NCBI GenBank assembly: GCA_030652255.1
Contig: JAUSAZ010000196.1
Span: forward strand, 10,875-74,874
Direction of reading: 5' to 3'
From: Myxococcales bacterium
GTDB lineage: Bacteria; Myxococcota_A; Polyangia; Polyangiales; Ga0077539
Length of the DNA stretch: 64,000 nt
Shown here in pieces: positions 9,413 through 30,183 of the stretch. The notes under the pieces were generated by a model. That model was given only the letters and a program-made list of their open reading frames with translations, made no database searches and was not told the DNA's origin. Position 1 is the stretch's first letter; each line of letters begins with the position of its first letter. Both the position numbers and the translations under genes were made by a program.

Positions 9413-11545
9413 ATGCCTTCCGTCCTCGCGCTGATCAGCAAGGTCGAGTTCAACAAGCTGGGCGCCGACGCAACGCCCGGCCGGCCGATCAGGCTCACCC
9501 GCTATCAGAGCAGACACGCGAGCCTCGAGCCGCTGGCCGATGGCGGCGATCTCTACCTCGTCACCGTGCGACCTGGAGACGAGCTTTGGCTCGTCGCGGT
9601 CCTCCGCAGGCCGCGAGCCACAACGAAGGGGTGGGAGGCGTCCGAGCCGAACACGCAACCCTTCGTCAGCGCGAAGTCGATCGCGAGGAAGCTGAAGTTC
9701 TCGACCGGCAAGGGCGTGTCGCGCGAGCCCGGGAAGCTGGGGATGTCCCTGCAGACCCCGCGCACCCTCACCGAGGGGGACGTCGCGCTGCTCGCGGGCC
9801 TGGCCGGCGGAGGCGAGGAGACCCGCGCACCCGCGGGGACGGCGGCGTCCGGGGAGGGCACCACCGCGTCGAGGGTCGATCAGGGCGTCCTGGACGACGT
9901 GGTCGTCCAGCTGCTCGCCCGGCTCCTGCAACGTCCGGCGGAGGACATTCGTGGGGATCAGTCCCGGTACGCCGCGTTCCACAACGATGACAGCACCTAC
10001 GACCTCGAGCCGGGATGGATCGACTGGACCACCCTCGAGGTCACCGACGACGACGAAGACGACAGCGAGGCACCGGACGAGGAGGAGGACGAAGACGAAG
10101 ACGAGGACGAGGACGAGGACGGCGATCCGGGGAACGACAACCTCTACGCGCGCCGCGACTTCGACTTCGCACGATCGCTCTTCGACCATGAGAGCTTCCT
10201 GCACGAGCGGTGCACGGACAGGTCGCTTCGGAAGGTGTTCGAGAAGCAGGGCGGGACGCTCTACGGCGCGCAGATCCAGGCGCTCGTGACGCAGGGGAGG
10301 CTCGACCCCGAAGGGCTGATCGAGCTCTCCCTCGAAGGGCGAATCAAGGCCCGGGGCGACTCGCTCGTCGACGCTGCCCGCGCGCTCTTCAAGCTCGATC
10401 GCTTCGGCGAGGAGGACCCGCTGCGACCGGGCTCCTACTCGAAGGTGGAGAAGAAGTGGAAGAAGGTCCTCGAGGAGATCGCCCCGACCAGGGAGCTGCG
10501 CGACCACCTCGGGCTCTTCTTCCAGACCGCCAACGCCGCCCGATGTTCAGGCGCCTTTTTTGATGGGGATCTGGAGCGCACGCTGCTCGAGGCCGACGGG
10601 AGACCCTGCTTCGAGGGCGTCGCGGGGTGGAGCGTGGGTGAAGGCCAGGGGAGCTTCTGCCTCGCGCGGATCCACGACGATGCCATCTCCCCGGTGCCCG
10701 CGTTCGAGGGCCGACTGTTCATCCGAAGGCGAGACCGCGGGACCCCGGCGCCGGCCCCCGGGACCGAGGGGGCGCCGCGCAGCCTCGGCGAGCGGCTCGC
10801 GCCGCACGATGCGCTCGACCTCGACCTCGAGGGCGACAAGATCGCGACGGTCGCGGACCTCCGACGTCGGATCGCGGCCCGAGGCGCCGCCGCCTTCATG
10901 AAGCCGATCGGAGGGTCCGCCGGGAAGATCCACACGCGGTCGATCACCGTCGTGCAGAGCATCCACCTCCTCCTCCAGGCCGGGGCCCCGGACGCCGCGC
11001 TCGCCCTCGGCGAGGCCGCGGCGCCGTTTCTCGGAGACGACATCCGCGCCCTGGCGCTCTACAACACCGGGGTCGCGCTGACGGCCCTGGGGCGCTACGC
11101 CGACGCCCAGGCCGTCTACGAGCGGGCCCTCCCGGCGGCGAAGAAGAGCGCGCCGTGGGCGGCGGCTCCGTCGTCGATGCTCCGCAACAACCTGGCGTGG
11201 ACGGCGTTCAAGGCGGGGCGGCTCGACGTCGCCCGGGCCCACATTCCCGCGGCGCTCGAGGAGGATCCGGAGAACTCGCATGCGCAGGGCACCGCCGGAT
11301 GCATCGCGCTCGCCTCGGGCAGGACCGAAGAGGCGATGAAGCACTTCGCCCTGGCCATGGCGGGCGGCCACGATCCCGACCCGGGGCCCGAGGTCGCGAG
11401 GCGCGACGACTACCGCGAGCTCGCGCTCCGCTTCGGCACCCCGATCGAGCTGACGGACGACGAGGCCGCAGCGCTCGGTCCCGAAGGCTACGTCGACGAG
11501 CTCGATCCGGAGGACGAGGACGAGGACGAGGACGACGACGAGTGA
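9413..11545 (+). CDS. Large hypothetical protein with poly-acidic tracts and C-terminal TPR-like repeats
   Basis: Long GC3-biased ORF with GGAG upstream of ATG 9413. Internal tract DDDEDDSEAPDEEEDEDEDEDEDEDGD and C-terminal tract PEDEDEDEDDDE. TPR-like helices (ALYNTGVALTALGRYADAQAVYERAL...). The start could instead be 9386. Confidence 0.55.
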   Translation: MPSVLALISKVEFNKLGADATPGRPIRLTRYQSRHASLEPLADGGDLYLVTVRPGDELWLVAVLRRPRATTKGWEASEPNTQPFVSAKSIARKLKFSTGKGVSREPGKLGMSLQTPRTLTEGDVALLAGLAGGGEETRAPAGTAASGEGTTASRVDQGVLDDVVVQLLARLLQRPAEDIRGDQSRYAAFHNDDSTYDLEPGWIDWTTLEVTDDDEDDSEAPDEEEDEDEDEDEDEDGDPGNDNLYARRDFDFARSLFDHESFLHERCTDRSLRKVFEKQGGTLYGAQIQALVTQGRLDPEGLIELSLEGRIKARGDSLVDAARALFKLDRFGEEDPLRPGSYSKVEKKWKKVLEEIAPTRELRDHLGLFFQTANAARCSGAFFDGDLERTLLEADGRPCFEGVAGWSVGEGQGSFCLARIHDDAISPVPAFEGRLFIRRRDRGTPAPAPGTEGAPRSLGERLAPHDALDLDLEGDKIATVADLRRRIAARGAAAFMKPIGGSAGKIHTRSITVVQSIHLLLQAGAPDAALALGEAAAPFLGDDIRALALYNTGVALTALGRYADAQAVYERALPAAKKSAPWAAAPSSMLRNNLAWTAFKAGRLDVARAHIPAALEEDPENSHAQGTAGCIALASGRTEEAMKHFALAMAGGHDPDPGPEVARRDDYRELALRFGTPIELTDDEAAALGPEGYVDELDPEDEDEDEDDDE

Positions 11546-11691
11546 GCCGTGGGCGTTCCACGGGTCTACCCATGACATCGCCGTGGTGACCAGAGCGCGA
11601 CGGGGTGGGGATGAGGTGGGAGGGTGCCTGAGCGAGGCGCCGCGCCGAAGGCGCACGAGTGTGCGTCTTCGTGCGGCGGGATCAGAGCCTG

Positions 11692-13866
11692 TCAGCGAAT
11701 GGTGAGGCGCTGCAGGAGCACCTGGGTGCCGGCCTGGAAGCTCATGGACTCCAGGCGTACGGGTTCGTCACAAGTGACCACCGAGGCCTGATCGAGCCAG
11801 GAGGAGGGCGTCGTCATGGTGGGGCTGAAGGAGTGCCCGCGGAAGGCCGTCAGGGGCGCCACGGTGGGCGTCACCGGGGTGGCGGTGAGGGTGTACGGCA
11901 TGAGGCGCATGCTGCCGGTGCCGCCCGGGAGGGTCATCACGTCGTCGTTGGTCTGGTACCAACGTCCCCAGAAGTGGTGCGGGTTGAGGCCACCGGGGGT
12001 CTGCTGGTGCAGCACGATGAGCCCCTGGCTGGTGGGGAACACGCCGGTGATCGTGTCCGACACGATCTCCTCGGCGCCGCGGCCGCCGTAGTAGAGCGAA
12101 CCCCAGTTCCAGGCGCCGGTCGTGGCGTTGAGGCTCATGAGGAAGCCATCGCCGCCGGAGGGATCGAAGGGCGCGAGGCCCACGCGCCCGGTGAAGATGG
12201 CCTGACCGTTGTACACGGCGACGTTCATGGTGTTGTTGCGGTCGGCGTTTCCTGCCTGCCAGGTGCGCGCCCAGACCACCGCGCCCGTCGCCGCCGACAG
12301 CCGCGCGCCCACGAAGGCGGTGCTGGCTCCCCGCACGTTGACGGCCGCCAGCACGCCGTCGCCGGAGATGGCGAGGCCGCGCACGTTGGAGCCGAAGACC
12401 GCCAGCGACTGCATCCACGCCAGGGTGGGCGCGTCGCCGTTGACGCCGTTGAGCCGCGCCACGAAGGGCGCGTTGTTGGAGATGCCGCCGAGGAAGGCCG
12501 TGCCGTCGGCGCCGACCACGAGGGAGCCCACTCGCGCGGTGCCCGTGTGGGTGATCGAGCGCGCCCAGAGGATCGTCCCGTCGGTCTTGCGGACCGCGGC
12601 GACGTAGAACTGCCCCGATACCTCGGCCGAGCCGGCCATGATGACGCGGTCGTTGAGCGACGCGTCGACGGCCTGACCGCGGAGCCCTTCACGCACGAGG
12701 TTGGGCACCGGCACCGCGCCGGCGTTGAAGCCGACGGACCAGGCGGGCGTGCCCGTGGCGGAGTCGACCCGCATGAGGCCCGCCTGGAAGACGCTGTTGG
12801 CGCTCGACGACGACCGATCGAAGGTGAGGTACAGGGAGCCGCTGCTGTCGATGTCGAGGGAGTCGGGGTTGCCGCCGACCTCGCCGTTGTTGCCGATGTC
12901 GCGGGCCTCCTGGATGTACTGCTCGTTGAGCTCCCGCACCCAGCCGAGGCTGCCGTTGGCGTTGACCCGCGCCAGCGCCACGTTGCGGTTGAAGCGGTCG
13001 CTCCACTGGTTGACGTTGATGTTGAAGTACATGTTGCCCGCGGCGTCGGCCACCACGGCGCCGGGCTCGGCGCTGTTGGAGCCCGCGACGTTGCTACGGG
13101 CGAACACGCGCTCCATCGCGTTGGACACCACCGGGCTCAGGGTGAGGTTGTCGCGACCACGGCCCGCGACGGTGACCGTGTACGTGCGCCCGCCGCCGTA
13201 GCGCACGATGAAGCGCACCGGACGCGGCCCCGATGCGATGGGGATGAAGTGCACCCCCACCGAGGTGCTGCCGTTGGGCGCCAGCATCTGCGGCATGAAG
13301 GTGAAGGGGACACGCGAGGTCCTGCCCGGCTGGGTGAACGCCCACTCGTGCGCCTCGGCGGGCGCCACCGGCTCCAGGGCCACGGACTCGACCATCATCG
13401 GACTGCTGCCGGTGTTGACGATGGAGAGCGTCACGACACCCATGCTCCACGGCGGCACACCGTCGAGCACCGTCTCGTTGTAGGTGCTGCCGTCGGCGAG
13501 AACGCGCGCCCCCATGCCCCGCACCTGGAGCGCCGCGGCCGTCGGCACGTCCGTCGCCACCGGGACGTCCGTCGCCATCGGCACATCCGTGGGCCGCGGC
13601 ACGTCCGTCGCCATCGGCACATCCGTGGGCCGCGGCACATCCGTCGCCATCGGGACGTCCGTCGCCACCGGGACATCCGTCGCTACCGGCACGTCCGTCG
13701 CCACCGGCACGTCCGTCGCTACCGGGACGTCCGTCGCCACCGGGACGTCCTGGGGCGTGTTGCCCGTATCGACCGGCGTCGACGCATCGGGCGTCGTGGC
13801 CCCGTCACTGCAACCCGCCGCGAATGCACAAAATACCGCCAGGCCCACACTCGTCCGAACTCTCAT
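11692..13866 (-). CDS. Secreted lipoprotein: DVPxxT tandem repeats, Ig-like domain and beta-propeller-like region
   Basis: Signal peptide with lipobox (VFCAFAAGC). 12 x 6-aa repeats. Remainder rich in beta-strand/propeller-like repeats (GxxxW.. patterns). Confidence 0.7.
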   Translation of the reverse strand: MRVRTSVGLAVFCAFAAGCSDGATTPDASTPVDTGNTPQDVPVATDVPVATDVPVATDVPVATDVPVATDVPMATDVPRPTDVPMATDVPRPTDVPMATDVPVATDVPTAAALQVRGMGARVLADGSTYNETVLDGVPPWSMGVVTLSIVNTGSSPMMVESVALEPVAPAEAHEWAFTQPGRTSRVPFTFMPQMLAPNGSTSVGVHFIPIASGPRPVRFIVRYGGGRTYTVTVAGRGRDNLTLSPVVSNAMERVFARSNVAGSNSAEPGAVVADAAGNMYFNINVNQWSDRFNRNVALARVNANGSLGWVRELNEQYIQEARDIGNNGEVGGNPDSLDIDSSGSLYLTFDRSSSSANSVFQAGLMRVDSATGTPAWSVGFNAGAVPVPNLVREGLRGQAVDASLNDRVIMAGSAEVSGQFYVAAVRKTDGTILWARSITHTGTARVGSLVVGADGTAFLGGISNNAPFVARLNGVNGDAPTLAWMQSLAVFGSNVRGLAISGDGVLAAVNVRGASTAFVGARLSAATGAVVWARTWQAGNADRNNTMNVAVYNGQAIFTGRVGLAPFDPSGGDGFLMSLNATTGAWNWGSLYYGGRGAEEIVSDTITGVFPTSQGLIVLHQQTPGGLNPHHFWGRWYQTNDDVMTLPGGTGSMRLMPYTLTATPVTPTVAPLTAFRGHSFSPTMTTPSSWLDQASVVTCDEPVRLESMSFQAGTQVLLQRLTIR
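13531..13746 (-). repeat. About 12 in-frame tandem copies of an 18-bp unit (encodes DVP[VMR][AP]T)
   Basis: Plus-strand units of the form gtccgtcgccaccgggac / atccgtgggccgcggcac, directly abutting. Lies inside the lipoprotein CDS. Confidence 0.85.
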
Positions 13867-14185
13867 CTGACCTCACTGGGAATGGGGTGGCGCGTGATTG
13901 GCTCACGCGGTTGACCCCAGGGTGATGCACAAGGCATGGCCCGACACCATTGTCAGGACCGTAGCTCGTGCTCATTCATCTGCGCACAAGAGCGGGACAT
14001 TCGTTGCGACTGCAGACCTCGCCCCGAGGAATGAGCCCACGACTCCAGGCGCTACATGTCAATCATTTCCCCAACCATCCCACGCTTCCCGGCTCCCCAC
14101 TGGCATCCAAGGCGCCGATCACTCGACACGATCGGGACAATGGAAACAGCCGACTGGCCCAGCGACTTCAACTCAGAGATTGCCT

Positions 14186-14255
14186 GAAATGTTTCCTGTT
14201 GAAATCGCGAAGAGACACGACCCCCGAAGTGAGTTTGGCGAGAGACCTATCAAAC
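14186..14255. repeat. Short degenerate copy of the 160-bp TIR element found at 54949-55108
   Basis: Shares ..tttc.tg.tgaaatcgcgaagag.. and ..gagtt.g.cgaga.ac.. with the element at 54949-55108. The central part is missing. Confidence 0.35.
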
Positions 14256-14529
14256 CAGTTCTCATCTCAGTCCTGAAGGGCTCAGTACACCCGCATGATG
14301 GCCAATCCACAGTCCCTACGCGCCGTGGCAGACAAACCTTTTGTGGCATGGTTCCCGCACCCTGTCCAGCCTCCGATTCGGGAGGGTGCCCTGCCAGAAC
14401 GCTCGTGGAGCGCTCTCCGCGCGCGACGAGGGCGACGACACGCGAGTGGGCACCTCAGGGGGGCCGCTTCCCCCTCATCACCCTCCATCGGCCTGCCGAT
14501 TGCTCCATCAGTGCCCTGCGCTCATCGAC

Positions 14530-14731
14530 ATGAGCGACGGGCCGCGGTCCGAAGGCCTGAGGGCCATTCGCACCCAGGTCGAGGCGGTGGTCGCTGAGGT
14601 GATCCGCCCGCGGGCCGAGGAGGTCGATCGCGAGGGCGCGTGGCCCGAGCACTCGATGCACGCGCTGGCGGGCGCCCGTGGCGAGCGCCGCCGGGCACGC
14701 TCCGGTAGATCCCTCACAGCGGTCGGCGTAG
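14530..14731 (+). pseudogene. Remnant: first ~49 codons of an ACAD-like gene fused out of frame to the last ~55 nt of a histidine kinase gene
   Basis: 14470-14676 aligns with 21053-21259 (promoter region plus 5' end of the intact ACAD gene). 14677-14735 aligns with 24813-24871 (3' end of the intact kinase gene, including its TAG). Confidence 0.75.
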
Positions 14732-15157
14732 TGTCCTCCCCCTCCGGTGCAGACGCGGCCCGGGAGCTTCCCCGGCGCGTCGGCCCTCGCGGCCTTCGCC
14801 GCGGCCATGGGGGCCCCCCGCCGCCGTGGAGGCCGCGAGGTGCTGACGCAGCCGACGCCAGGGCTCGGCGTCGTGGCGGAGCTGGTAGGCGCGCGGGTGG
14901 GGCGACACCGGCGTCACGACCACCGGCTCGCGGCAGACCCGGGCGAGCACGGCGGTGGCGAACGCGAGCCCCTCGCGCTGCACCCAGGCGTCCGGGGCTT
15001 CAGCGCGACCCCGTCCCCGGGAAGGGCCAGGAGCCTCTTCGCGACCGTGGCAGACCATTCGATGGGCATCAGCCCCCGGAGGCTACGTCCGCGGGCCCTC
15101 CCTCCGCCCTCATCTCTCCACGCCGCCCGGCTGCCGTGCTGTGCGACCCTCCGCGCC

Positions 15158-18100
15158 ATGACGGTCGAGACGTTCATCGCGAAGTGGGCGACGGCGGAGG
15201 CGGCGGAGCGCGCCCACAAGGACTCCTTCCTCAACGAGCTCTGCGGCGTGCTCGGCGTCCCCCTCCCCGACCACCTCACCGGCGACCCCGCCCAGGACCG
15301 CTACGTCTTCGAGAAGGACGCCACCCTCGTCCACGACGGCAAGCCCAACTCCGTCGGCAAGATGGACCTCTACAAGCACGGCTGCTTCGTGCTGGAGGCC
15401 AAGCAGGGCTCCAACCCCGGCGCGAAGAAGACCGGCTCCGCCCGCCGCGGCACCGCCCACTGGACCGTCATGATGCAGGACGCCTACGGCCAGGCCATGG
15501 GCTACGCCCGGGTGCTCGCCGCGCCGCCGCCCTTCCTCGTCGTCGCCGACATCGGGCACTGCTTCGACCTCTACGCCTGCTTCGACGGCTCCAACCTCTG
15601 GAAGCCCTTCCCCGACGCGCAGCACAACCGGGTCTTCTTCTCGACCCTCACCGACCCCGCCGTGCGCGAGCTGCTCAAGGGCATCTGGACGGCGCCCCTC
15701 GCCCTCGACCCCGCGCTGCGCTCGGCGAAGGTCACCCGCGACGTGGCCGTCCACCTCGCCGAGCTCGCCCGGATGTTCGAGGCGAAGCACAAGCCCGAGG
15801 AGGTCGCCGGCTTCCTCATGCGGTGCATCTTCACCATGTTCGCCGAGGACGTCGGGATGTTCGGCCTCGACGAGAAGAGGCGCCCCCGCAAGCTCTTCAC
15901 CGAGGCCCTGCGCGACCACTGGATCAACGCCCCCAGGCGCTTCCAGCCCGAGGTCGAGCACCTCTGGCGCGTGATGAACGAGGGCGGGTACTTCGGCCTC
16001 GGCGCGAAGCTCCTCAAGTTCAACGGCGGACTCTTCGCCGACGCCCGCGCGCTGCCCATCACCGACCGCAAGGTGCTCGATCGCCTCCTCGAAGCCGCCA
16101 CCAGCGACTGGAGCAAGGTCGAGCCCGCCATCTTCGGCACGCTCCTCGAACGCGCCCTCGACCCGAAGGAGCGCCACCGGCTCGGCGCCCACTACACCCC
16201 GCGGGCCTACGTCGAGCGGCTGGTGCGGCCCACCCTCGAAGCCCCGTTGCGCGCGAAGTGGGAGGCCGTGCGCGCCGAGGTGCTCAAGCGCGTCGGCGAG
16301 GTGGTCTCTGCCCCGTCGCCCGACGGCTCCGACGGGGCGGCGACGGTGGGCGCGGGGGCGGCGGCGGGCGCGGCGGGGGGTACGGGCGCGGCGGGGAAGA
16401 AGAAGCGCGCGAAGAAGCTGCTCCCCAACACGGTGCACGGGCGAACCCAGATCGTGAAGGAGGTGCGGGTGCTGGTGAAGGCGTTCCACCAGGAGCTGTG
16501 CACGGTGCGGGTGCTCGACCCGGCGTGCGGCACCGGGAACTTCCTCTACGTCGCCCTCGACGCGATGAAGCGGCTGGAGAGCGAGGTGCTCTCGCTCGAC
16601 GCGCAGCTCGCCACCAGCGTGGGCATCCCCGTGGACGTGGCCTTCGAGTGGGGGGCGATGGTGACGCCCGCGCAGTTCCTCGGCATCGAGAAGAAGCTGT
16701 GGGCCAAGGAGATCGCCGAGCTCGTGCTCTGGATCGGCTTCCTCCAGTGGTTCCATCGGACGCGGCAGAACGACGACGGCTCGGTGCGCTGGGAAGAACC
16801 CGTCCTGCGCAACCTGCACAACATCGAGTGCAGGGACGCCGTCCTGGCGTGGGACCGGGAAGAGCCCGTGCTCGACGGGCAGGGCAAGCCGGTCACTCGG
16901 TGGGATGGCGAGTCGATGAAGAAGAGCCCGGTGACGGGCGAAGACGTGCCCGATGAGACGAAGCGGGTGCTGGTGACGAAGCTGGTGGGGGCGAGGCGGG
17001 CGGAGTGGCCCAAGGCGGACTACGTGGTGGGGAATCCGCCGTTCTTGGGCGGGTGGCGAATGCCACAGTCATTCGGCGAAGGCTACACGCAGGCTCTCCA
17101 TCAGAGCTATACGCACATCCCCGAGAAGGCCGACTATGTGATGTACTGGTGGGATCGCGCCGCGACCCTTGCCCGACAGGGTAGCGTGAAGGCATTTGGG
17201 TTCATCACGACCAACAGCATCACCCACGTCTTTCAGCGCAAGGTGATTGAGCACCACACCAGCGCCGTTCCGGCGATCGAGTTGATCTTCGCGATCCCAG
17301 ACCATCCATGGGTCGATGACGCCACTGCGGCGGCGGTTCGGATCGCGATGACCGTCGCGGTCGTCCGAGGCGAGACAGCTTACGGAGCCGTGCTTGGATT
17401 CGTCGATGAATCTGCGACGCTGACCGACGGAGCACTCCACGTTCAGTTCAACCGGGTCGACGTGCTTCATTCCGACCTTCGCGCTGGCGCGAACCTTCCA
17501 AGCGCTGTCGCCATTCGATCCAACGCAGACCTGTGCTGTCCTGGCATGCAGTTGTTCGGCGCCGGGTTTCTCGTCGACACGGTGACAGAAGCGAAGATCA
17601 ATGAAGGTGTCGCCGCTGATCTCGCAAGATCGATCGTGCGACCATTCGTCAATGGCCGCGATTTGATGGGGAAGCCGCGACAGTTGTTCGCCATCGACTT
17701 CCATGGCCTGTCGTCGGCGCAGGCGCTCGCCACTCATCCCAATGCGTTTCAAAGAGTGCTGGATGTGGTGAAGCCGGAGCGGGATGCCAACAAGGTCGCG
17801 TATCTTCGCGACCGGTGGTGGCTGTTTGGGCGCGAGCGCCAGGCGCTACGAAGAGCCCTGAAGTCGCTTCGGCGGTACATCGTCACTCCTGAGACGTCTT
17901 CCCACCGGGTGTTCCAGTTTCTCGACACGCTGGTATTGCCCGACAACATGGTAACGGCGGTAGCAATCGATGATGCCTGGCTCTTGGGAGTGCTCTCGTC
18001 GCGCGTGCATACAACCTGGGCGCTCGGGGCGGGAGGAACGCTTGAAGACCGTCCTCGGTATACCAAGACCAGTTGCTTCGATCCCTTCCCCTTCCCCGAC

Positions 18101-18766
18101 GCCAGCCCCGAGCAGGCGGCGCGCATCCGTGAGCTCGCCGAGAGCCTCGATGCCCACCGCAAGGCGCGGCAGGCGGCGCACCCGACGCTCACGATGACGG
18201 GCATGTACAACGTGCTCGCGAAGCTCCGCGCTGGCGATCCCCTCACCCCGAAGGACCAGGAGATCCACCAGCAGGGTCTGGTCTCGGTGCTCAAGCAGCT
18301 CCACGACGACCTCGACGCGGCGGTGTTCGCGGCCTACGGCTGGGACCCTGCGCTGACGGACGAGGAGATCCTGGCGAAGGTGGTGGCGCTCAACGCCGAG
18401 CGGGCGGAGGAGGAGTCCCGCGGGGTGATCCGGTGGTTGCGACCGGCGTTCCAGAACCCCGGCGGGGCGAAGGCGGCGACGCAGGAGACCATGGACCTCG
18501 GCGACGAGCCCGACGAGGCCGCGGCGGTGGCGGCGACGGCGGCGAAGGCGGTGGGTCCGTGGCCGAAGCGGGCGTCGGAGCAGTTCGCGGCGGTGAGGGA
18601 CCTGCTGGCGACGAGGGCCTCGGCGTGGAGCGCCGCGCAGGTGCAGGCGGCCTTCAAGGGCGCGCCCGCGGACGAGGTCGAGGAGATGATGGCGACGCTG
18701 GTGGTGTCGGGGCAGGCGGTGGGCTTCGCGACGGCGGAGGGGGAGCGGTGGCAGCGGGCGGGGTGA
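15158..18766 (+). CDS. MmeI-family type IIL/IIG restriction-modification enzyme (fused endonuclease, N6-adenine methyltransferase and specificity domain)
   Basis: N-terminal D..EAK nuclease motif ([17 protein letters not shown]). [25 protein letters not shown]. SAM motif [13 protein letters not shown]. Catalytic [10 protein letters not shown]. C-terminal blocks [40 protein letters not shown] and [11 protein letters not shown]. Start at ATG 15158 ([10 protein letters not shown]); the upstream ORF extension was rejected. Confidence 0.85.
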   Translation: [1202 protein letters not shown]

Positions 18767-18904
18767 GCGGGGCTGACGGAGCGGGGCGCGGAGTGATAGG
18801 CACAGGCGTTAAGCGGCGATCGGTCGGCCCCCCAGGGCGGCGTTGCCAAAACTGCTTGTTTTTCCATGCCGCGGGATGAATCCCTGATCCTTCCCGGAAT
18901 GTTT

Positions 18905-19183
18905 CGGCCATGCGTTGGAGGTCGCGCAGCCCGCCGTACGTCGCCGGGGTTCGGGCGTTGGCCCTACACCCCGGGCAAGCGCAGGCAGGCGCCCGCTCCG
19001 CGGGCTGTCGAACCGAAGCTCCATGAACCTGCCTGAGGTCGGTGTGCTCGCGTCCGGAAGGTCGATCGAGTTCCTGTTCGAAAGCCCCGCCAGGGGCGCC
19101 TGCCTGCGCTTGCCCGGGGTGTAGGGCCAACGCCCGAACCCCGGCGACGTACGGCGGGCTGCGCGACCTCCGACGCATGGCCG
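18905..19183. repeat. Palindromic repeat element, family A (90-nt near-perfect inverted arms, ~99-nt centre)
   Basis: Arm 18905-18994 is the reverse complement of 19094-19183 with one mismatch seen. The core caccccgggcaagcg.a.gcaggcgcccgct.cgcgggct.tcgaac is shared with 33028-33259. Confidence 0.8.
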
Positions 19184-19328
19184 ACCGGTGGCTGCCGGAA
19201 GCCGACGAGCAGCGATGGACCGACGCTCAGGCGGAGATCGCGGCGCTCGCGGCGCGCATCAGGCTGCGCGCGGACGGCACCGACGAAGAGGCCTGAGCCC
19301 CGCGTCGGCGTAGGGGGCCTTCGGGCGG

Positions 19329-19736
19329 ATCGTTCAGCGTGAGCCGCGGGGCATGGACGAGATCGGTGGAGAGCCCATGGGGCCCTGTCGCAGGGGTTCT
19401 GCCGGGTTGGAGAGCACCCGCCCACGCCCGCCCGATGCGCCTCGCCGTCGCGTCCGCGACGGGGTGCCCGCTCACGCCCGCTGTCCTCGTCTGGACGCTG
19501 GACGGCGCAGTCGCCTCGTCGGAGAGGACGACTGCCCGGTGAGCGGGCACCCCGTCGCGGACGCGACGGCGAGGCGCATCGGGCGGGCGTGGGCGGGCAC
19601 CCCGTCGCAGACGCGACGGCGAGGCGCATCGGGCGGGCGTGGGCGGGTGCTCTCCAACCCGGCAGAACCCCTGAGACAAGGGCCCCTGGGGCTCTCCACC
19701 GATCTCGTCCATGCCCCGCAGCTCACGCTGAACGAT
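19329..19736. repeat. Giant imperfect palindrome (~408 bp) containing a 50-bp tandem duplication in its right arm
   Basis: Left arm from 19329 (atcgttcagcgtgagccgcggggcatggacgagatcggtggagagccc...) is mirrored by the right arm ending at 19736. 50-bp unit gggcaccccgtcgc.gacgcgacggcgaggcgcatcgggcgggcgtgggc occurs at 19545-19594 and 19595-19644. Confidence 0.8.
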
Positions 19737-19775
19737 TCCCCCTTCGGGGGGGGAGGCGTAGGGGGTGAGCGTCTC

Positions 19776-19948
19776 GAGAGACTCCCCCCTCTCTCCAACC
19801 GCCGCCCGTAGCCCTCCGAGAGACCCCCTCCCCTCGCCAACCGCTCCCCCGCAGGGTTCAGAGAGACCCCCTCCCCTCGCCAGCCGCTCCCCCGCGGCGT
19901 TCGGAGAGCCCCCCCTCTCTCTCCCACCGCTACCTCCCAGCGTCGTGG
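19776..19948. repeat. Four tandem ~43-bp C-rich units (G-rich on the minus strand) upstream of CDS 20080
   Basis: Units start gagagac(c/t)ccc(c)tc... at 19776, 19818, 19861 and 19904. A related 3-unit array lies at 25547-25676. Confidence 0.7.
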
Positions 19949-20079
19949 GACTCCTACCCACCTCTTCCTACTGAAATTCGCGGCATTTCTCTTCGATCGT
20001 GACACCCCTTCGCGCCCGTCGGTACGGTCGCCGGGAAGAGTGCCGCCCCTTCAGGCCGCACCGGGAGGAACCCACTGCC

Positions 20080-20916
20080 ATGGCTCACACATTCGTCCGA
20101 ATCGACGCGTCGAACTACACGAGCGTCCCCCGGATCAACGCCCAGAGCGGCGTCGGCCTCACCCGCGCGATGCTCGTCGCGCTGCCGAAGGACCCTGCGG
20201 CCCCGGTGAAGCACGCCGCCCGCGCGGCGCGCGCCGCGGCGGTGAAGCTACAGGCCGCCAACGGGGCCGCGGCCGAGGCCGCCTCGGCGGACACCTCGCC
20301 CCGCAACGCGCGGGTCATCGACAACGAGGCCGACGCCCTGCACGGCGCCGTTCTTCGCCGCCTCGCCGACCACGCGCTGCTCGCCGGTCACGACGACGGC
20401 CTCGCCGCCTCGATCGCGACGCTGAAGCGGGCGCTCTACCCTGACGGCGGCGACTTTCTCCGCGGCGACATGCTGACGCAGTGGCAGGCGACCGAGGAGT
20501 GGTACGAGCGGCTCGTCGCCGACGGGCGGGAGAAGGCACTGCGCGCCGCGGTGGGCGACGCGTTCGTCGACGCCCTCGCCGCGGTGCACGCCGAGTACGG
20601 CACCGTCGTCGGAACGACCGCGGCGCAGCGCCGGGTCCCTGCGAAGGTCGACCTCGCCACGCCCCTCGCCGCCCTCGCCGAGCGGCTGCAGGACCTCGCG
20701 CTCCAGCTCGTCGCGCTCGCCAACGACGGCGGCGCGAGCGACGACCACCGCGCCGCCGCCCGCGAGGCGCTCGCCCCGATCGACCGGCACCGCGCCAGCA
20801 ACGCCCGCCGCGGCGCCGCGAAGGCCACGCCCGCCGAGCCCGTCGCCGAGCCGAAGCCCGAGGCGAAGGGAGAGGCGAAGCCCACCGACGCCGACGAGCC
20901 GCTGCCCGAGGTGTAG
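20080..20916 (+). CDS. Hypothetical Ala-rich protein (278 aa) with KPE-rich C-terminal tail
   Basis: ATG 20080 preceded by GGGAGGA. GC3-biased. A decayed paralogue lies at 25809-26349. No family recognised. Confidence 0.6.
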   Translation: MAHTFVRIDASNYTSVPRINAQSGVGLTRAMLVALPKDPAAPVKHAARAARAAAVKLQAANGAAAEAASADTSPRNARVIDNEADALHGAVLRRLADHALLAGHDDGLAASIATLKRALYPDGGDFLRGDMLTQWQATEEWYERLVADGREKALRAAVGDAFVDALAAVHAEYGTVVGTTAAQRRVPAKVDLATPLAALAERLQDLALQLVALANDGGASDDHRAAAREALAPIDRHRASNARRGAAKATPAEPVAEPKPEAKGEAKPTDADEPLPEV

Positions 20917-21112
20917 ACCGCCCCTCCCTCGCGGTCGGGATCTGGCTCCGGTCGCTGACGACGCCGCGCCTCCGACAGCGCCGTCGCACGGCCGTGGCAG
21001 CCGTCTGCACGCTCGTTCCCCCCGCAACCCGCTGACCGGCGGGGCCCTTTATCCCCCTCATCACCCTCCATCGGCCTGCCGATTGCTCCATCAGTGCCCT
21101 ACGCTCATCGAG

Positions 21113-22278
21113 ATGAGCGACGAGCTGCTGTCCGAAGGCCTGAGGGCCATTCGCCCCCAGGTCGAGGCGGTGGTCGCCGGGGTGATACGCCCGCGGGCCG
21201 AGGAGGTCGATCGCGAGGGCGCGTGGCCCGAGCACTCGATGCACGCGCTGGCGGGCGCCGGACTGCTCGGGCTCCAGGTGCCGAAGCGCTACGGCGGGCA
21301 CGGGCAGGGGCTGCTCGCGCTCGCCACGGTCACCGAGTCCATCGGCGCGGCCTGCGCGTCGTCGGCCCTGTGCTTCGGGATGCACTGCGTGGCCACGGCG
21401 GTCATCGCGGCCAGGGCCACGCCCCACCACGCCGAGCGCTACCTCCGCCCCATCGCGGAGGGGCGCCACGTGACCACCCTCGCGCTCTCCGAGAGCGGCT
21501 CCGGCGCGCACTTCTACCTCCCGGCGACGACCCTCTCGCGCGACCCCGACGGACGCTGGGTCGTCGAGGGCGGCAAGCAGTTCGTCACCAACGGCGGCCA
21601 CGCCGACTCGTACGTCGTCTCCCTCATCGGCGAGGCGCGGACCGCGGAGTCCGGGGAGTTCAGCTGCCTCGTCATGGACCGCGACCTGCGCGGCATGAAC
21701 TGGCTCGACCCCTGGCGGGGCATGGGCATGCACGGCAACTCCTCCCGCGCGGTGCGCTTCGAGGGCGTGAGGGTGCCAGCCGAGAACCTCCTCGGCGCGG
21801 AGGGAGACCAGAACTGGTACGTGTTCGAGGTCGTCGCGCCGTACTTCCTCATGGCCATGGCCGGGACCTACCTCGGGCTGGCGCAGGCCGCGGTGGACGC
21901 GACGATCCAGCACCTGCGCGACCGGCGGTACGCGCACTCGGGCGAGACGCTGGGCGAGGCCCCGGTGCTACAGCACCGGCTCGCGGAGATCTGGGCCGAC
22001 GTGCAGAAGACCCGCGGGCTCATCTACAACGCCGCGCGCCTCGGAGACCTGGGCGACCCGGGCTTCCTGCCGCACATCTTCGCGTGCAAGGCCGAGGCGG
22101 CGGACACCGCGGTGCGGGTGACCAACGAGGCCCTGACCCTCTGCGGCGGCTCGGCCTACCGGGAGAACAGCCAGCTCGCCCGCCTCCTGCGGGACGCCCG
22201 CGCGAGTCACGTGATGTCCCCGACCACCGATCTGCTCAAGCAGTGGACGGGGCGGGCCCTGCTCGGTCTCCCGCTGCT

Positions 22279-22282
<4 letters not shown>
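21113..22282 (+). CDS. Acyl-CoA dehydrogenase-fold flavoprotein
   Basis: Typical ACAD N-terminus (REEVDREGAWPEHSMHALAGAGLLGLQVPKRYGG) and C-terminus (TLCGGSAYRENSQLARLLRDARA). Start taken at ATG 21113 (MSDELL) rather than TTG 21083. Confidence 0.85.
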
Positions 22283-24867
<2,585 letters not shown>

Positions 24868-24879
24868 TGTTCTGCGGCG

Positions 24880-25470
24880 ATGCGGCAGATGGATCCCCTG
24901 CACACCTTCGCGCAGCGCGCGATCCATGAGTCCGGCGGGGTACGCTCGACCGAGGAGATCGCGCGAGACCGGCGCGAGACGGCGCGTACGAACTGCCAGC
25001 GCTCCTTCTGGATGCTCACCGGGCTCGGCCTCGCGTCGGCCATCGCAGGGCTCGCGGGCGTCGGGTACTACCTCTCCGCCGTGGCCGGGCTCGTCACCAT
25101 GGACGAGAAGCTGCGATCGGGCGTGCTGATCGCCGCCGTGACCATCGGGATCATGGGGACCCTCTTCGTCTACCTGGCGCGCAGCTTTCGGCTGCCGTGG
25201 GACCTCCGCACCCGCGGTCGCCCCGCGCGCGCCGTGGTGATCGCGTCGGAGGTCGGGGTGCGCGTTCGGCAGGGAAAGCGCGGTCCCATCACCGCGACGA
25301 TCCTCGAGCTCCGTGTCGCGGTGCACGTCGAGGGGACGTCGCCCTATGAGACCCGCGCCCGCGCCGTCGAAGAGGTCCACGGGCGCCTGGTGCCTGGCCA
25401 GGAGACCGTCGTGCTCGTCGACCCCGCGAAGCCCTCCCGGGTGCTCGTGCGCGACGCGCTGATCGGGTGA
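24880..25470 (+). CDS. Membrane protein, hypothetical (2 TM plus a beta-rich C-terminal domain)
   Basis: Hydrophobic helices FWMLTGLGLASAIAGLAGVGYYL and VLIAAVTIGIMGTLFVYL. GC3-biased ORF. Confidence 0.55.
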   Translation: MRQMDPLHTFAQRAIHESGGVRSTEEIARDRRETARTNCQRSFWMLTGLGLASAIAGLAGVGYYLSAVAGLVTMDEKLRSGVLIAAVTIGIMGTLFVYLARSFRLPWDLRTRGRPARAVVIASEVGVRVRQGKRGPITATILELRVAVHVEGTSPYETRARAVEEVHGRLVPGQETVVLVDPAKPSRVLVRDALIG

Positions 25471-25546
25471 GGGGCGCGAAACGGACCGGGTGCGTGTAGC
25501 TTTCGTGCGTCGCCCACCGCACTCGAAGCTGGCACCGCCGCGAGCA

Positions 25547-25676
25547 ATTCCCTCCCCCCCCCTCTCCAGCCGCCGCCCGTTGCCCTCCGAGAGCCCCCCT
25601 CCCCCTCTGCAACCGCCACCCGTAGCCCTACGGGAGGCCCCCTCCCCTCGGTTCTCGCCACGCCCTTGCGTCGTGG
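25547..25676. repeat. Three tandem ~43-bp C-rich units, paralogous to 19776-19948
   Basis: Same motif family (..ccgagagcccccctccccctc..ccgcc..cgtagccct..). Same position relative to the downstream paralogue. Confidence 0.6.
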
Positions 25677-25808
25677 GAGGCCCGCCTACCTGTTCCCACC
25701 AGAATCCGGCGCGTTGTCGATCGCTGGCGACTCACCGGCGCGCCCGTCGCTAGCGTCCGAGGAAGGCGTGCCGCCCCTGTCGGGCGCACCGGGAGGTCAT
25801 CCACTGTC

Positions 25809-26349
25809 ACGGCTCAACCCTTCGATCGCCTCGATGCGTCCCAGTACACCAGCATCCCCCGCATCAAGCCCCAGAGCGGGGTCGCGCTCACCCGCGCGGC
25901 GACATGCTCACCCAGTGGCAGGCACCGAGGAGTGGTTCGGACGCCTGCGCGAGGCGGGCCGCGAGAAGGCCCTGCGCGCCCTGGTGGGCGACGCCTTCGC
26001 CGACGCGATCGCGACGGTGCACGCCGAGTACGGCGAGGTCGTGGGCACCACGAAGCCGAAGCGCCCGGAGCCCGCGAAGATCGACGTCGCCACGCCCCTC
26101 GCCGCCGTCGCCCAGGGGCTACAGGACCTCGCGCTCCAGCTCGTCTCGCTCGCCAACGACCGCAGCGCCACCGAGGCGCAGCGCGCCGCCGCCCGCGCCG
26201 CCCTCAGCCCGATCGACCGGCACCGCGCCAGCAACGCCCGCCGCGGCGCCGCGAGGGCCACGCCCGCCGAGCCCGTCGCCGAGCCGAAGCCCGAGGCGAA
26301 GGGAGAGGCGAAGCCCACCGACGCCGACGAGCCGCTGCCCGAGGTGTAG
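25809..26349 (+). pseudogene. Decayed paralogue of CDS 20080-20916: start codon lost and an internal frame-shifting deletion of ~290 bp
   Basis: ccactgccATGgctcac (20072-20088) corresponds to ccactgtcACGgctcaa (25801-25817). Sequence 20170-20460 is absent, and the junction acccgcgcggcgacatgct leaves the N- and C-terminal parts in different frames. The last ~150 codons are closely similar to the intact copy, including an identical tail TPAEPVAEPKPEAKGEAKPTDADEPLPEV. Confidence 0.6.
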
Positions 26350-26591
26350 ACCGCCCGCCCAGGCCCGCCACCAGTGGGCGGGTGCCTCGCTCTCACGGTC
26401 GGGGTCTGGCTCCGGTCGCTGACGCGGTACGAGCGCGGCGCCGTCAGCGAGGTCGCGGTCGTACCGGGGAGGCGCTCACTGACGAGGTCGCGGTCGTACT
26501 CCGACCGTCGAGAGTCCAGGGCCACCCCCTTGACAACGCGCTGCGTTAACCTAGACGTGACGCGTCGAGTCAACGACGTGAGGTGACGACC

Positions 26592-27056
26592 ATGGAGACG
26601 CAATCGCAGGACACGGCCCGGATGACCCGCATCGAGGCCGCACGACAGGCCGCGCTGGGCACCCTCTCTCGCGCCCGGGAGACGCTGCAGGTCGCGGCAA
26701 CGACGGTTCCGGCGTGGGCGCGCGGCGTCGAGACCAAGGCCGGCGAGACCGTCGATGCCCTGCTCGAGCGCGTCGGCCTGGTGCGCATCGCCCGCGTCGA
26801 GGCCCAGCGCCCGGGCGCCACCGCCGCCGCGACCAGCGAGCCGACCCCGGTCGAGGCCGCGGCCCCGGTCGACGCCGCAGCCCCGGTCGAGGCGCCCACC
26901 GACGCCGCCGAGGAGACCGCCGAGGTCACCGCCGAGGCGGTCACCGAGGCCGCTGCCGGGGAGACCACCGACGCGCCCGCCGGAGAGGCCGCCCAGGGCC
27001 CCGCGGCGACGGTCGAGCCCGCGGGCGACCGCTCGGGCCGCCGCCGCCGTCGCTGA
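26592..27056 (+). CDS. Hypothetical small protein, Ala/Glu/Thr/Pro-rich with RRRRR C-terminus
   Basis: ATG 26592 preceded by GAGGTGA. GC3-biased. Low-complexity C-terminal half. No family recognised. Confidence 0.4.
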   Translation: METQSQDTARMTRIEAARQAALGTLSRARETLQVAATTVPAWARGVETKAGETVDALLERVGLVRIARVEAQRPGATAAATSEPTPVEAAAPVDAAAPVEAPTDAAEETAEVTAEAVTEAAAGETTDAPAGEAAQGPAATVEPAGDRSGRRRRR

Positions 27057-27198
27057 CACCCAACACCCGCGACCGCAAAGCCGCGCGCGTGAAGGCCGCG
27101 CCGATGTTGCTTCGACGCACCGGGGTGGTGTTCGATACCCGCGTCAGCGCCCCGCCGGACTCGCAGCAACACACGGGGCCGCTCACTGGAGAAGCCTC

Positions 27199-30183
27199 AT
27201 GCGAGCACGCGCCTGGATCGTCTTGTCCGCGTCCCTCCTCGGCCTGGCCGGCTGTGATGGGCGCGCGTTGTTGGGCCCGCCGACCGTCTCCGGCGACGCC
27301 GCGGTCGACCTCGGATCGCAGGACGTCGCAACCGACACCGGGACCGACACCGGGACCGACACCGGCGCCCTCGACGCGCCCGGCGACCTCGGCCCCGACG
27401 TCGCCACCGACGGGGGGATGACCTGCGCCACCGACGAGACCCGCTGCGGCGGCGCGTGCGTCGACACCCGCAGCGATCCCCGCCACTGCGGCGCCTGCGG
27501 GAGTTCTTGCGCCGGGGGTCAGGTCTGCAACGCCGGCGTCTGCGCGACGACCTGCGGCGCGGGGCTCAGCGACTGCGGCGGCGCCTGCGTCGACCTCGGG
27601 TCGAGCGCCGACCACTGCGGCGCCTGCGGCTCGGCCTGCACCGGCGGCGCGGCCTGTAGCGCGGGCGTCTGCGTCTGCCCGGCGGGCACCACCCGCTGCG
27701 GCGGCGCGTGCGTCGACACCCGCAGCGACCCGGCCCACTGCGGCGCCTGCGGCAGCGCGTGCGCCGCGGGGCAGGTGTGCTCCGCGGGCGCGTGCGGCGT
27801 GACCTGCGCCGCGGGCCTCACGGCCTGCGCCGGGGCCTGCGTCGACACCCGCAGCGACGGCGCCCACTGCGGCGCCTGCGGGGTCACCTGCGGCGGCGGC
27901 GCCAGCTGCGTGTCGGGCGCCTGCGCCTGCCCGGCGGGAACCGCCCGCTGCGGCGACCGCTGCGTCGACCTCGCCTCCAGCGGCACGGACTGCGGCGCGT
28001 GCGGGATGGCCTGCGCGGCGGGCCAGGTGTGCTCCGCGGGCGCCTGCGCGACGGCGTGCCCGGCGGGGCGCCTCGCCTGCGGCCGCGACTGCGTGGACGT
28101 CGGCGCCGACAGCGCCAACTGCGGCGCGTGCGGCGTGCGCTGCGCGGGCGGCGCGAGCTGCGTGGCGGGCATGTGCGCCTGCCCGGCGGGCCGCTCGCTG
28201 TGCGCCGGCCTCTGCGTGGACACCACCAACGACCCGGCCCACTGCGGCGCGTGCGGGCGGTCCTGCGGGGCGGGCCAGACCTGCGGCGCGGGGACCTGCG
28301 GCAGCACCTGCGGGGCCCTGACGGCCTGCTCGGGCTCGTGCGTCGACACGGCCACGGACCCGGCCAACTGCGGCGGCTGCGGCGTGGTGTGCACCGGCGG
28401 CGCGGCCTGCGTGGCGGGCGCCTGCGGGTGCCCGACGGGGCAGCGCGCGTGCGGCGGGCGCTGCGTCAACGTCGCGACCGACAACGCCAACTGCGCGGTG
28501 TGCGGCAACGTCTGCGCGTCGGGCACCACCTGCAACGGCGTGGGCTGCGTGTGCAACGAGGGCACGGTCAACTGCGCCGGGCGCTGCGTCGTCACGCAGA
28601 CCAACCCGGCCCACTGCGGGGCGTGCGGCAACGTGTGCCCGGCCGGGCAGGCGTGCTCGGCGGGCGTCTGCGGCTCGACCTGCGCGGCGGGCCAGACGCG
28701 CTGCGGCGGGTCGTGCGTCGACCTCCAGAGCGACCGCGCCAACTGCGGCGCCTGCGGGACGGCGTGCACCGGGGGGACGGTGTGCAGCCGCGGGTCGTGC
28801 GTGTGCGACCCGGGCCGCACCAACTGCGGCGGCGCCTGCGTCGACGTGCAGAGCGACCGCGCCAACTGCGGCGCCTGCGGGCGCGCGTGCGCCGCGGGCC
28901 AGGCGTGCTCGGCGGGCGCCTGCGCCGCGAGCTGCGCGGCGGGGCTCACCAACTGCGCCGGGTCGTGCGTCGACCTGTCGAGCGCCAACGCGAGCTGCGG
29001 CGCCTGCGGGCGCGCGTGCACCGGCGGGACGCGCTGCGTGACCGGCGCCTGCCAGTGCCCCGCGGGGCAGACCAGCTGCGCGGGCACCTGCGTCGACAGC
29101 GACAGCAACCCGGCCAACTGCGGCGCCTGCGGGCGCGCGTGCGCCGCGGGCCAGGTGTGCGCCTTCGGGCGCTGCCTCATGAACTGCATCCCCGGCCAGA
29201 CCCAGTGCGGCGGCGGGTGCTTCTTCACCCAGGTCGACCCGGCCAACTGCGGCGGCTGCGGGGTGGCCTGCAACGCCGGGCAGTTCTGCTTCAACAGCCG
29301 GTGCCAGTGCCCGATGGGGCAGACCCTCTGCAACGGGGTGTGCGTCGACACGCGCACCAACGCCGCCCACTGCGGCGCCTGCGGCGCGGGCTGCATGACC
29401 AACCAGGTGTGCAGCGGCGGCACCTGCGGGGTCACCTGCCCGGCGGGCACCACGGCGTGCGCCGGGGCCTGCGTCGACACCCGCTCCAACGACCGCAACT
29501 GCGGCGGCTGCGGGGTGGTGTGCACCGGCGGATCGGACTGCACCGCGGGCGCCTGCGCCTGCCCGGCGGGCCAGGTTCTCTGCGGCGGGCGCTGCGTCAA
29601 CCTCCGCACCGACGCGCTCAACTGCGGCGCCTGCGGCACCGCGTGCAGCGGCGGCGCGACCTGCACCGCGGGCGCCTGCGCCTGCCCGGCGGGCCGAACC
29701 CTCTGCAACGGCGTGTGCGTCAACCCGCTCACCGACGCCGCCCACTGCGGCGCCTGCGGGCGGGCCTGCGCGGCGGGCCAGGCGTGCACCGCGGGGGCCT
29801 GCGTGGCCGCCTGCCCGGCGGGTCAGACCCGCTGCGGCGCGACCTGCGTGAACACCGGCAACGACGAGGCGAACTGCGGCGGCTGCGGGGTGACCTGCGC
29901 CGGCACCTGCATGGGCGGTCGGTGCACCTGTCCCCTGGGCGAGGCCCTCTGCGGCGGGCGCTGCGTGGGCGTGCTCGACGACCCCTCCAACTGCGGGCGC
30001 TGCGGCAACACCTGCCCCAGCACCCAGGCGTGCGCGCTCGGGTTCTGCACGGCGCGGTGCCTGCCCGGCCAGACCATCTGCAGCTCGATGTGCGTCAACA
30101 CGCAGGTCGACGCGGCCAACTGCGGCACCTGCGGCAACCGCTGCCCGGCGGGTCGCATCTGCCGCACGGGGCGCTGCCAGTGA
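27199..30183 (+). CDS. Lipoprotein built from 22 tandem Cys-rich ~40-aa modules (CGG.CVD...D...CG.CG..C..G..C..G.C)
   Basis: GGAG upstream of ATG 27199. Signal peptide with lipobox (LLGLAGC). 22 occurrences of the [HN]CG.CG core counted by eye. Confidence 0.8.
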   Translation: MRARAWIVLSASLLGLAGCDGRALLGPPTVSGDAAVDLGSQDVATDTGTDTGTDTGALDAPGDLGPDVATDGGMTCATDETRCGGACVDTRSDPRHCGACGSSCAGGQVCNAGVCATTCGAGLSDCGGACVDLGSSADHCGACGSACTGGAACSAGVCVCPAGTTRCGGACVDTRSDPAHCGACGSACAAGQVCSAGACGVTCAAGLTACAGACVDTRSDGAHCGACGVTCGGGASCVSGACACPAGTARCGDRCVDLASSGTDCGACGMACAAGQVCSAGACATACPAGRLACGRDCVDVGADSANCGACGVRCAGGASCVAGMCACPAGRSLCAGLCVDTTNDPAHCGACGRSCGAGQTCGAGTCGSTCGALTACSGSCVDTATDPANCGGCGVVCTGGAACVAGACGCPTGQRACGGRCVNVATDNANCAVCGNVCASGTTCNGVGCVCNEGTVNCAGRCVVTQTNPAHCGACGNVCPAGQACSAGVCGSTCAAGQTRCGGSCVDLQSDRANCGACGTACTGGTVCSRGSCVCDPGRTNCGGACVDVQSDRANCGACGRACAAGQACSAGACAASCAAGLTNCAGSCVDLSSANASCGACGRACTGGTRCVTGACQCPAGQTSCAGTCVDSDSNPANCGACGRACAAGQVCAFGRCLMNCIPGQTQCGGGCFFTQVDPANCGGCGVACNAGQFCFNSRCQCPMGQTLCNGVCVDTRTNAAHCGACGAGCMTNQVCSGGTCGVTCPAGTTACAGACVDTRSNDRNCGGCGVVCTGGSDCTAGACACPAGQVLCGGRCVNLRTDALNCGACGTACSGGATCTAGACACPAGRTLCNGVCVNPLTDAAHCGACGRACAAGQACTAGACVAACPAGQTRCGATCVNTGNDEANCGGCGVTCAGTCMGGRCTCPLGEALCGGRCVGVLDDPSNCGRCGNTCPSTQACALGFCTARCLPGQTICSSMCVNTQVDAANCGTCGNRCPAGRICRTGRCQ

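Follow-up and report, generated by a model that had tools for sequence, protein, structure and literature searches.

Two adjacent, directly repeated units in the genome of a Myxococcales bacterium are best explained by one direct duplication, followed by complementary losses and then by recombinational imports, a history to which we assign a probability of about 0.5. The units lie in a stretch of 64,000 nucleotides (the window; contig JAUSAZ010000196.1 of assembly GCA_030652255.1, positions 10,875 to 74,874 of the forward strand), and each carries, whole or as a remnant, an ACAD gene followed by a hybrid kinase gene, a slot, an array of C-rich 43-bp repeats, and a gene of an uncharacterized family that we call U (U1 in unit 1, U2 in unit 2). 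In unit 1 the ACAD-kinase pair is reduced to a scar, an MmeI-family restriction-modification (RM) gene stands between scar and array, and U1 is intact; in unit 2 the pair is intact, a DUF3592-like gene precedes the array, and U2 is a pseudogene. We conclude that the duplication is real, correctly assembled and old, and that the region is a recombination-prone defense-island slot, anchored on the left by the MmeI gene and on the right by the array and U.

Self-BLAST and repeat finding on positions 13000-28000, together with BLAST against the whole genome, returned every homologous block listed in an initial annotation of this DNA and bore out its two collinear direct units. Block a pairs 14469-14676 with 21052-21259 (208 bp, 95.7% identity, E 3e-93), and block k pairs 14672-14737 with 24808-24873 (66 bp, 90.9%, E 2e-20); then come the array with the 5′ part of U (19784-20169 with 25555-25898, 70-92% identity), a longer block of U (20461-20923 with 25895-26356, 86.8%, E 6e-160), and a block past U (20928-20987 with 26392-26456, 80%) that is partly a dispersed, REP-like element of ~50 bp. 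These matches are far above chance (BLAST E-values from 1e-9 to 1e-160), and the repeated blocks occur only locally, the dispersed sequences being the palindromes of unit 1 and the ~50-bp element after each U. Divergence between the units is uneven: the U tails differ at 0.7% of positions and the U bodies at 20%, with 4.3% and 9% for blocks a and k. The paralogous copies are neither each other's closest relatives throughout nor evenly diverged along the unit. Sensitive local alignments detected no residual homology between the two slots or beyond the unit edges (z ≤2.2 against shuffles), Rfam gave no match on 13000-28000, and two tandem U copies were found in none of the relatives examined.

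The source genome (G000) is a metagenome-assembled genome (MAG) from groundwater, with 9.37 Mb, 73.5% GC and 234 contigs. The apparent duplication might accordingly be a chimeric contig joining strain variants across shared repeats, the more so as Logan unitigs are interrupted at the exact tracts that the units share (49, 72, 37 and 149 bp). We checked the assembly against Logan unitigs from the two source groundwater runs. Unit-specific unitigs at 14488-14634 and 21071-21217 have ~1x depth (34 and 32 in sample X1, where 1x is ~32-35x) and equal 1x depth in both samples, the shared exact tracts have ~2x depth (70), and the scar junction itself is spanned by a 60-bp unitig (14647-14706), also at 1x. 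The path from the left flank through the scar and MmeI to U1 is fixed by a second assembly (GCA_030692645.1; 14-kb contig JAUXZQ010001012.1), which is 100% identical to the window over 10080-20821. That contig stops within the repeated U tail, and the connection of U1 to the intact ACAD copy (a2) is forced by elimination. Against these observations an assembly artifact is scarcely credible.

The ACAD-kinase remnant of unit 1, which the initial annotation had read as the 5′ end of the first gene fused to the 3′ end of the second, was left behind by a microhomology deletion of 3,548 bp. Its first part, a1 (14469-14676, plus strand), keeps the ACAD upstream remnant and the first 49 codons (ATG at 14531) at 95.7% identity to 21052-21259; its second part, k1 (14677-14737, plus strand), holds the last ~55 nucleotides (nt) of the hybrid kinase gene, the stop codon and 6 nt. 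The two are fused out of frame at a GCGC(C/T) microhomology, giving a scar of 274 bp. All nine differences between a1 and a2 fall in 14518-14604; six are derived in a1, and at the other three a1 keeps the state of the relatives. The identical run that follows (14605-14713) crosses the deletion junction and is therefore not a conversion tract. Both k1 and its counterpart k2 carry a kinase tail specific to the source genome, which relatives in samples X3, X6 and X39 lack, marking the scar as an in-lineage paralogue. Downstream, a unique spacer (x1, 14738-15157) with a short dispersed inverted repeat at 14773-14854 leads to MmeI, and homology with MmeI relatives begins only at ~15052-15141 within it. 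The ACAD upstream region kept in the scar points toward MmeI, 480 nt downstream, and this arrangement makes it possible that the scar's ACAD promoter drives MmeI (promoter capture). Promoter and terminator scans of this 73.5% GC DNA, in which consensus scans are uninformative, returned no sigma-70-type sites.

In unit 2 it is the U gene that has decayed, as the initial annotation held. U2 (25809-26349, plus strand) is triply disabled: an ATG to ACG change removes the start codon, 295 nt were deleted out of frame between CAC(C)CGCGCG repeats, and a further 1-nt deletion leaves the three parts of the gene in three different frames. U1 (20080-20916, plus strand) is intact and encodes 278 amino acids, though its sequence is mosaic. 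With the scar in unit 1 and a disabled U2 in unit 2, each gene is back to one working copy. The proposal that the two units had partitioned subfunctions thus gives way to a simpler account, in which whole redundant genes were lost in a complementary way: the ACAD-kinase copy is a 274-bp scar, and U2 has no start codon and two frameshifts. We find no evidence that any gene subfunctionalized; each returned to single copy.

Decay after a single duplication, as first proposed, does not account for the U genes. In a tree of the family, U2 forms a clade with the U protein (P0004) of a sister contig, L031 (the 64.8-kb metagenome contig Ga0451580_000550 of JGI 3300042202), with 98/98 support, whereas U1 groups with P0002, found in an unrelated setting; P0003 and P0005 lie nearer to U2. 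The U region of L031 is 90-96% identical to that of U2. By these comparisons U2 is the orthologue of L031 U in both position and sequence (96%), and U1 and U2 are not sister copies. The proportion of synonymous differences (pS) from L031 is 0.05 for U2 and 0.27 for U1, against 0.05-0.14 in orthologous genes, a calibration that places the divergence of U1 deeper than the split from L031. The U1 body, up to 20774, has its closest match in P0002 and differs by ~20% from both U2 and L031. At 20774/20775 this divergence collapses: U1 and U2 differ by 20% over 20491-20774 and then at a single position in 149 nt (20775-20923). That lone tail difference, at 20822, is an A in the window and a G in a unitig from sample X2, so that some members of the population may have no tail difference at all. 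Since the U1 body and the neighboring slot remnant (~80% identity) are diverged from L031 while the 3′ end of MmeI is 97% identical to it, ~18794-20774 looks like an imported haplotype lying between native sequences.

The MmeI gene (15158-18766, plus strand) encodes a predicted type IIL/IIG RM enzyme of 1202 amino acids, with the Pfam domains MmeI_N, MmeI_hel, MmeI_Mtase and MmeI_TRD in order in one polypeptide and a PADLOC match to REase_MTase_IIG (1378 bits, model positions 2-1134 of 1136). Enzymes of this family cleave ~20 nt from their site and modify a single strand. The initial annotation had treated this gene as a gain following the duplication, but comparison with relatives reverses the direction of that inference. 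In L031 the order is MmeI, the Septu pair PtuA and PtuB, two small genes, a peptidase C11 gene, a 43-bp array and U, after which a 5.3-kb insert with a transposase separates U from the right flank; in the congeneric genome G002 it is MmeI (76% amino acid identity), PtuA, PtuB, array and U. The Septu pair, between MmeI and array in both, is absent from the window's slot. Because the order MmeI-slot-array-U is common to L031 and G002, MmeI is in all likelihood ancestral to the locus, as is the frame as a whole, with the slot its variable part: different cassettes stand upstream of the array in every relative. The 5′ and 3′ parts of MmeI diverge from L031 as much as the right flank does (92% and 97% nucleotide identity outside the specificity region).

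Within MmeI, the target-recognition region departs from this pattern. Over ~17051-18100 the enzyme is 32-60% identical to that of L031 at the amino acid level, with a pS of 0.72, whereas outside this region it is 94-100% identical, with a pS of 0.06-0.14. Positions 17051-18100 thus represent a natural specificity-domain swap relative to L031; such a swap between enzymes otherwise 94-100% identical is useful for specificity mapping and is a lead worth pursuing. A dip in GC content at third codon positions coincides with the same region. Stand-alone MmeI 5′ fragments of ~360 bp (84-93% nucleotide identity) occur in two congeneric genomes, at L039 8274-8641 (G005, contig C124) and L040 831-1188 (G001, contig C174); both end at the same point, at window ~15479-15495, and have the appearance of remnants from MmeI genes since lost.

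We suggest the following history. An ACAD-hybrid-kinase cassette would have come to sit upstream of MmeI, and a direct duplication of ~6 kb would then have copied the series ACAD-kinase, slot, array, U and REP-like element; that there was a single duplication is suggested by the collinearity of the units and by their shared, lineage-specific kinase tail. Copy 1 lost 3,548 bp of ACAD-kinase sequence through the GCGC microhomology, leaving the scar seen in the sequence, and copy 2 would have lost MmeI and the palindromes, with the DUF3592-like gene in their place, while the three lesions observed silenced its U gene. Recombination with diverged relatives would later have overwritten parts of copy 1: the slot remnant, the array and the U1 body form a visible mosaic, with the right breakpoint of the U1 import at 20774/20775, and the target-recognition region of MmeI has been replaced as well. 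At the left edge of unit 1, low-GC foreign DNA would have replaced the native sequence. What had seemed a duplication with reciprocal decay thus becomes, once relatives are compared, a mosaic of duplication, microhomology deletion and allele import.

Several observations weigh against this history. The join between the units is not a clean tandem junction: 89 bp of it (20963-21051) recur neither ahead of unit 1 nor behind unit 2. Comparison with relatives recovers the MmeI-slot-array-U frame, in L031 and G002, but an ACAD-kinase pair upstream of MmeI was seen in none of them, L031 having been compared from its MmeI gene onward. The blocks differ in divergence, from 0.7% in the U tail through 4.3% in a to 9% in k, and the six a1-derived changes crowd into 78 bp for no reason that we can give. 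The history also calls for many events, no fewer than one insertion and one duplication together with two deletions, a replacement and two imports.

A rival explanation is recombination between strains, of the Campbell type or otherwise unequal, in which a circularized segment from a sister strain (ACAD-kinase-DUF3592-array-U) integrated at a resident MmeI-slot-array-U locus. A single crossover in the resident U tail would have made the array and U a direct repeat, and the a1/k1 scar would be a separate matter. Such an event would leave the sharp breakpoint at 20774/20775 and the near-identical 149-nt tail beyond it, would bring together U genes from different allelic lineages, and agrees with a cassette upstream of the array that differs in every relative and with a join composed of filler and native ACAD upstream sequence. 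It would nevertheless need a further duplication and deletion to place a scar upstream of MmeI, and it requires the resident U to be of the rare U1 type, although MmeI and the right flank resemble those of L031, which has the U2 type; moreover, we found no strain with the donor haplotype, and homologues of the DUF3592-like gene are almost absent. We regard this origin as possible but rather unlikely.

Two independent local copying events, for instance by microhomology-mediated template switching, would make the 274-bp scar a templated insertion at a breakpoint, and the repeat of array and U a separate, older duplication or pair of paralogues. The scar is indeed short, has non-homologous DNA on both sides and a microhomology junction, its mutations cluster beside an identical core that spans the junction, and the a and k blocks differ markedly in divergence from the U body. 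Both repeated blocks are, however, collinear in order and orientation, for which one duplication is the simpler cause, and two tandem U copies occur in no relative; we consider two such events improbable. The model of the initial annotation, a tandem duplication of ACAD-kinase, small gene, array and U with MmeI and the palindromes inserted afterwards into the unit-1 spacer, likewise respects the collinearity of the blocks, and the palindromes are mobile-looking dispersed repeats. It would demand independent, identical gains of MmeI, which stands upstream of array and U in L031 and in G002 with Septu between, and it does not sit with 5′ and 3′ parts of MmeI that diverge from L031 like the right flank. 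We think it very improbable, and retain the single duplication with complementary losses and later imports as our working history.

The intact pair of unit 2 (21052-24873, including a2 and k2) consists of an ACAD gene (21113-22282, plus strand) that overlaps by 4 nt a gene for a PAS-GAF-HisKA-HATPase-REC hybrid kinase (22279-24867, plus strand), both identified with Pfam. The pair is conserved in G003, L044, L046, L047 and L050. In the nearest relatives (L047-L050, 93% nucleotide identity) it follows a gene of 228 amino acids; the homology of L047 and L050 to the window starts at 21009, in the last codons of that gene, whose homologue in the source genome sits on another contig. By this comparison the pair is evidently an immigrant at the locus. 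The last 11 kinase codons (24835-24867), beyond the receiver domain, are wholly unlike those of 99%-identical relatives from three wastewater metagenomes, whose ending reads ...CCGGAGCCCCGCCGCGGGGTCGCGGTGTAG. We rejected a rearrangement breakpoint at 24834, as the relatives merely carry a diverged kinase tail of similar length. The unit-2 slot is occupied by a gene for a small, DUF3592-like membrane protein (24880-25470, plus strand; weak Pfam match). Its sole homologue among 25 relatives, in G014, is 42% identical, and no further cluster was found among 5.8 billion proteins. It is a rare accessory gene and, like the ACAD-kinase pair, appears to be a newcomer here.

The join between the units (20917-21051) has three pieces: it opens with a REP-like element (20917-20969), continues with filler, and from 21009 onward consists of the last part of the 228-amino-acid gene and the ACAD upstream region in their native arrangement, as in L047 and L050. 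Compared with 14380-14468 and with 26426-26560, its 89 bp at 20963-21051 show no match, so that there is no direct end-to-start junction. The ~50-bp REP-like element follows both U copies (20917-20969 and 26384-26456) and has copies of 85-90% identity on at least 8 contigs. Downstream of U2, 26350-26515 holds the REP-like elements and a 35-bp hairpin resembling a terminator (26357-26391), which U1 does not have, and from 26516 the right flank is syntenic with L031 (4.7 kb at 94.6% identity). At the left edge of unit 1, ~600 bp of strain-specific, low-GC DNA (13873-14468; GC about 0.58) probably replaces whatever preceded the ACAD copy; it is unique in the genome, other metagenomes do not cover it, and its open reading frames have no Pfam match. 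Beyond it lies a minus-strand gene of 724 amino acids (11692-13866) with a weak LED-repeat match, and within this gene an 18-bp tandem repeat of ~17 units (13497-13802).

Between MmeI and the unit-1 array lie two large palindromic elements (18904-19184 and 19323-19742) of families dispersed genome-wide. Between the two stands the only slot sequence alignable with L031, a 124-bp remnant (19181-19304) that is homologous, at ~80% identity, to the slot there. The first palindrome gives 164 high-scoring segment pairs genome-wide, with copies of 92% identity on contigs C64 and C199. A similar palindromic family of ~320 bp stands beside the MmeI relic in G001 (L040 1303-1635).

The arrays mark the right anchor of the slot. 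Tandem Repeats Finder (TRF) resolved the array that precedes U1 (19776-19950, plus strand) into 4.1 C-rich units of 43 bp and the one that precedes U2 (25554-25647, plus strand) into 2.2, the latter array being 90% identical to the array region of L031. Period-43 arrays of 2.2-4.9 copies precede U-family genes at nine loci in three genera: the two in the window, L014 (11306-11500), L015 (10978-11090), L016, L009, L031, L033 and L035. Arrays homologous to those of the window stand upstream of U in L031, L033, L035, G002 and G001, those of G019 and G017 share the period but are unrelated in sequence, and the unit sequences are unrelated between genera. Most units hold a short inverted repeat, whose arms measure 7 bp in G002, G001 and G019 but are shorter in G000 and L031 (5-6 bp). 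Wherever we looked, the variable cassette stops at the 5′ edge of the array or close to it. At L015 (G001) a palindrome (10790-10965) lies directly upstream of the U array, and its arms end ...GCAGGTTGAAAC, which we take to resemble the end of a CRISPR repeat.

The U family itself is large, with 1,312 clusters (50% identity) at E ≤1e-3, and without Pfam coverage; U has no Pfam or PADLOC match, and neither have ten long family members in Pfam. An AlphaFold model of U1 is predicted to be all-helical (predicted local distance difference test score 83) and has no fold match in the PDB (best Foldseek E-value 0.43). In other species the neighborhoods of U include the conflict-system genes Uma2, TOTE primase-helicase and bpMoxR. 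We offer as a tentative and rather doubtful proposal that the 43-bp-period array and U form a conserved, previously undescribed module: U might bind DNA and regulate its own expression through iteron-like operators, or the module might serve as a recombination anchor. If so, its upstream edge would be an insertion point for defense and accessory cassettes in this bacterial family, and the duplication described here a by-product of recombination at the array. This large uncharacterized family behind arrays of equal period and differing sequence, in three genera, is a lead worth following.

The arrays recall the sopC centromere of plasmid F, whose 12 direct repeats of 43 bp each contain an inverted repeat of 16 bp that SopB binds (PMC3177203). 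The window arrays are likewise tandem, of 43-bp period, and adjoin an accompanying gene, and most of their units may carry an inverted repeat, though one with arms of only 5-6 bp; they differ in having 2-5 units and in lying upstream of that gene. No ParA or ParB family protein is encoded next to the window arrays and U has no ParB signature, so the likeness is one of resemblance only. The MmeI enzyme agrees with characterized type IIL enzymes in its four Pfam domains in order, in its single polypeptide of ~1200 amino acids and in having no separate methyltransferase gene nearby (PMC4833311); it differs in being a predicted enzyme, with a specificity region strongly unlike that of its sister strain.

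As in other tandem duplications with fractionation, the window has two adjacent direct units with equal block order, each duplicated gene survives in one unit, and one of the losses was microhomology-mediated. It differs in that one U copy probably carries an imported allele, the slot genes are unrelated, the units do not join end to start, and unit 1 has had its outer left edge replaced. The locus also resembles defense islands and integration hotspots: an MmeI-family RM gene, Septu, a peptidase C11 gene or palindromes fill, in different strains, one slot between conserved anchors, and the target-recognition domain of the RM enzyme has been swapped. In contrast to these, the slot here showed no integrase or recombinase, and the right anchor is an uncharacterized gene behind a 43-bp array that every cassette abuts. 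We conclude that the locus exemplifies a known kind of event, in which segmental duplication, complementary loss and recombination mosaicism combine in the ordinary turnover of a defense island.

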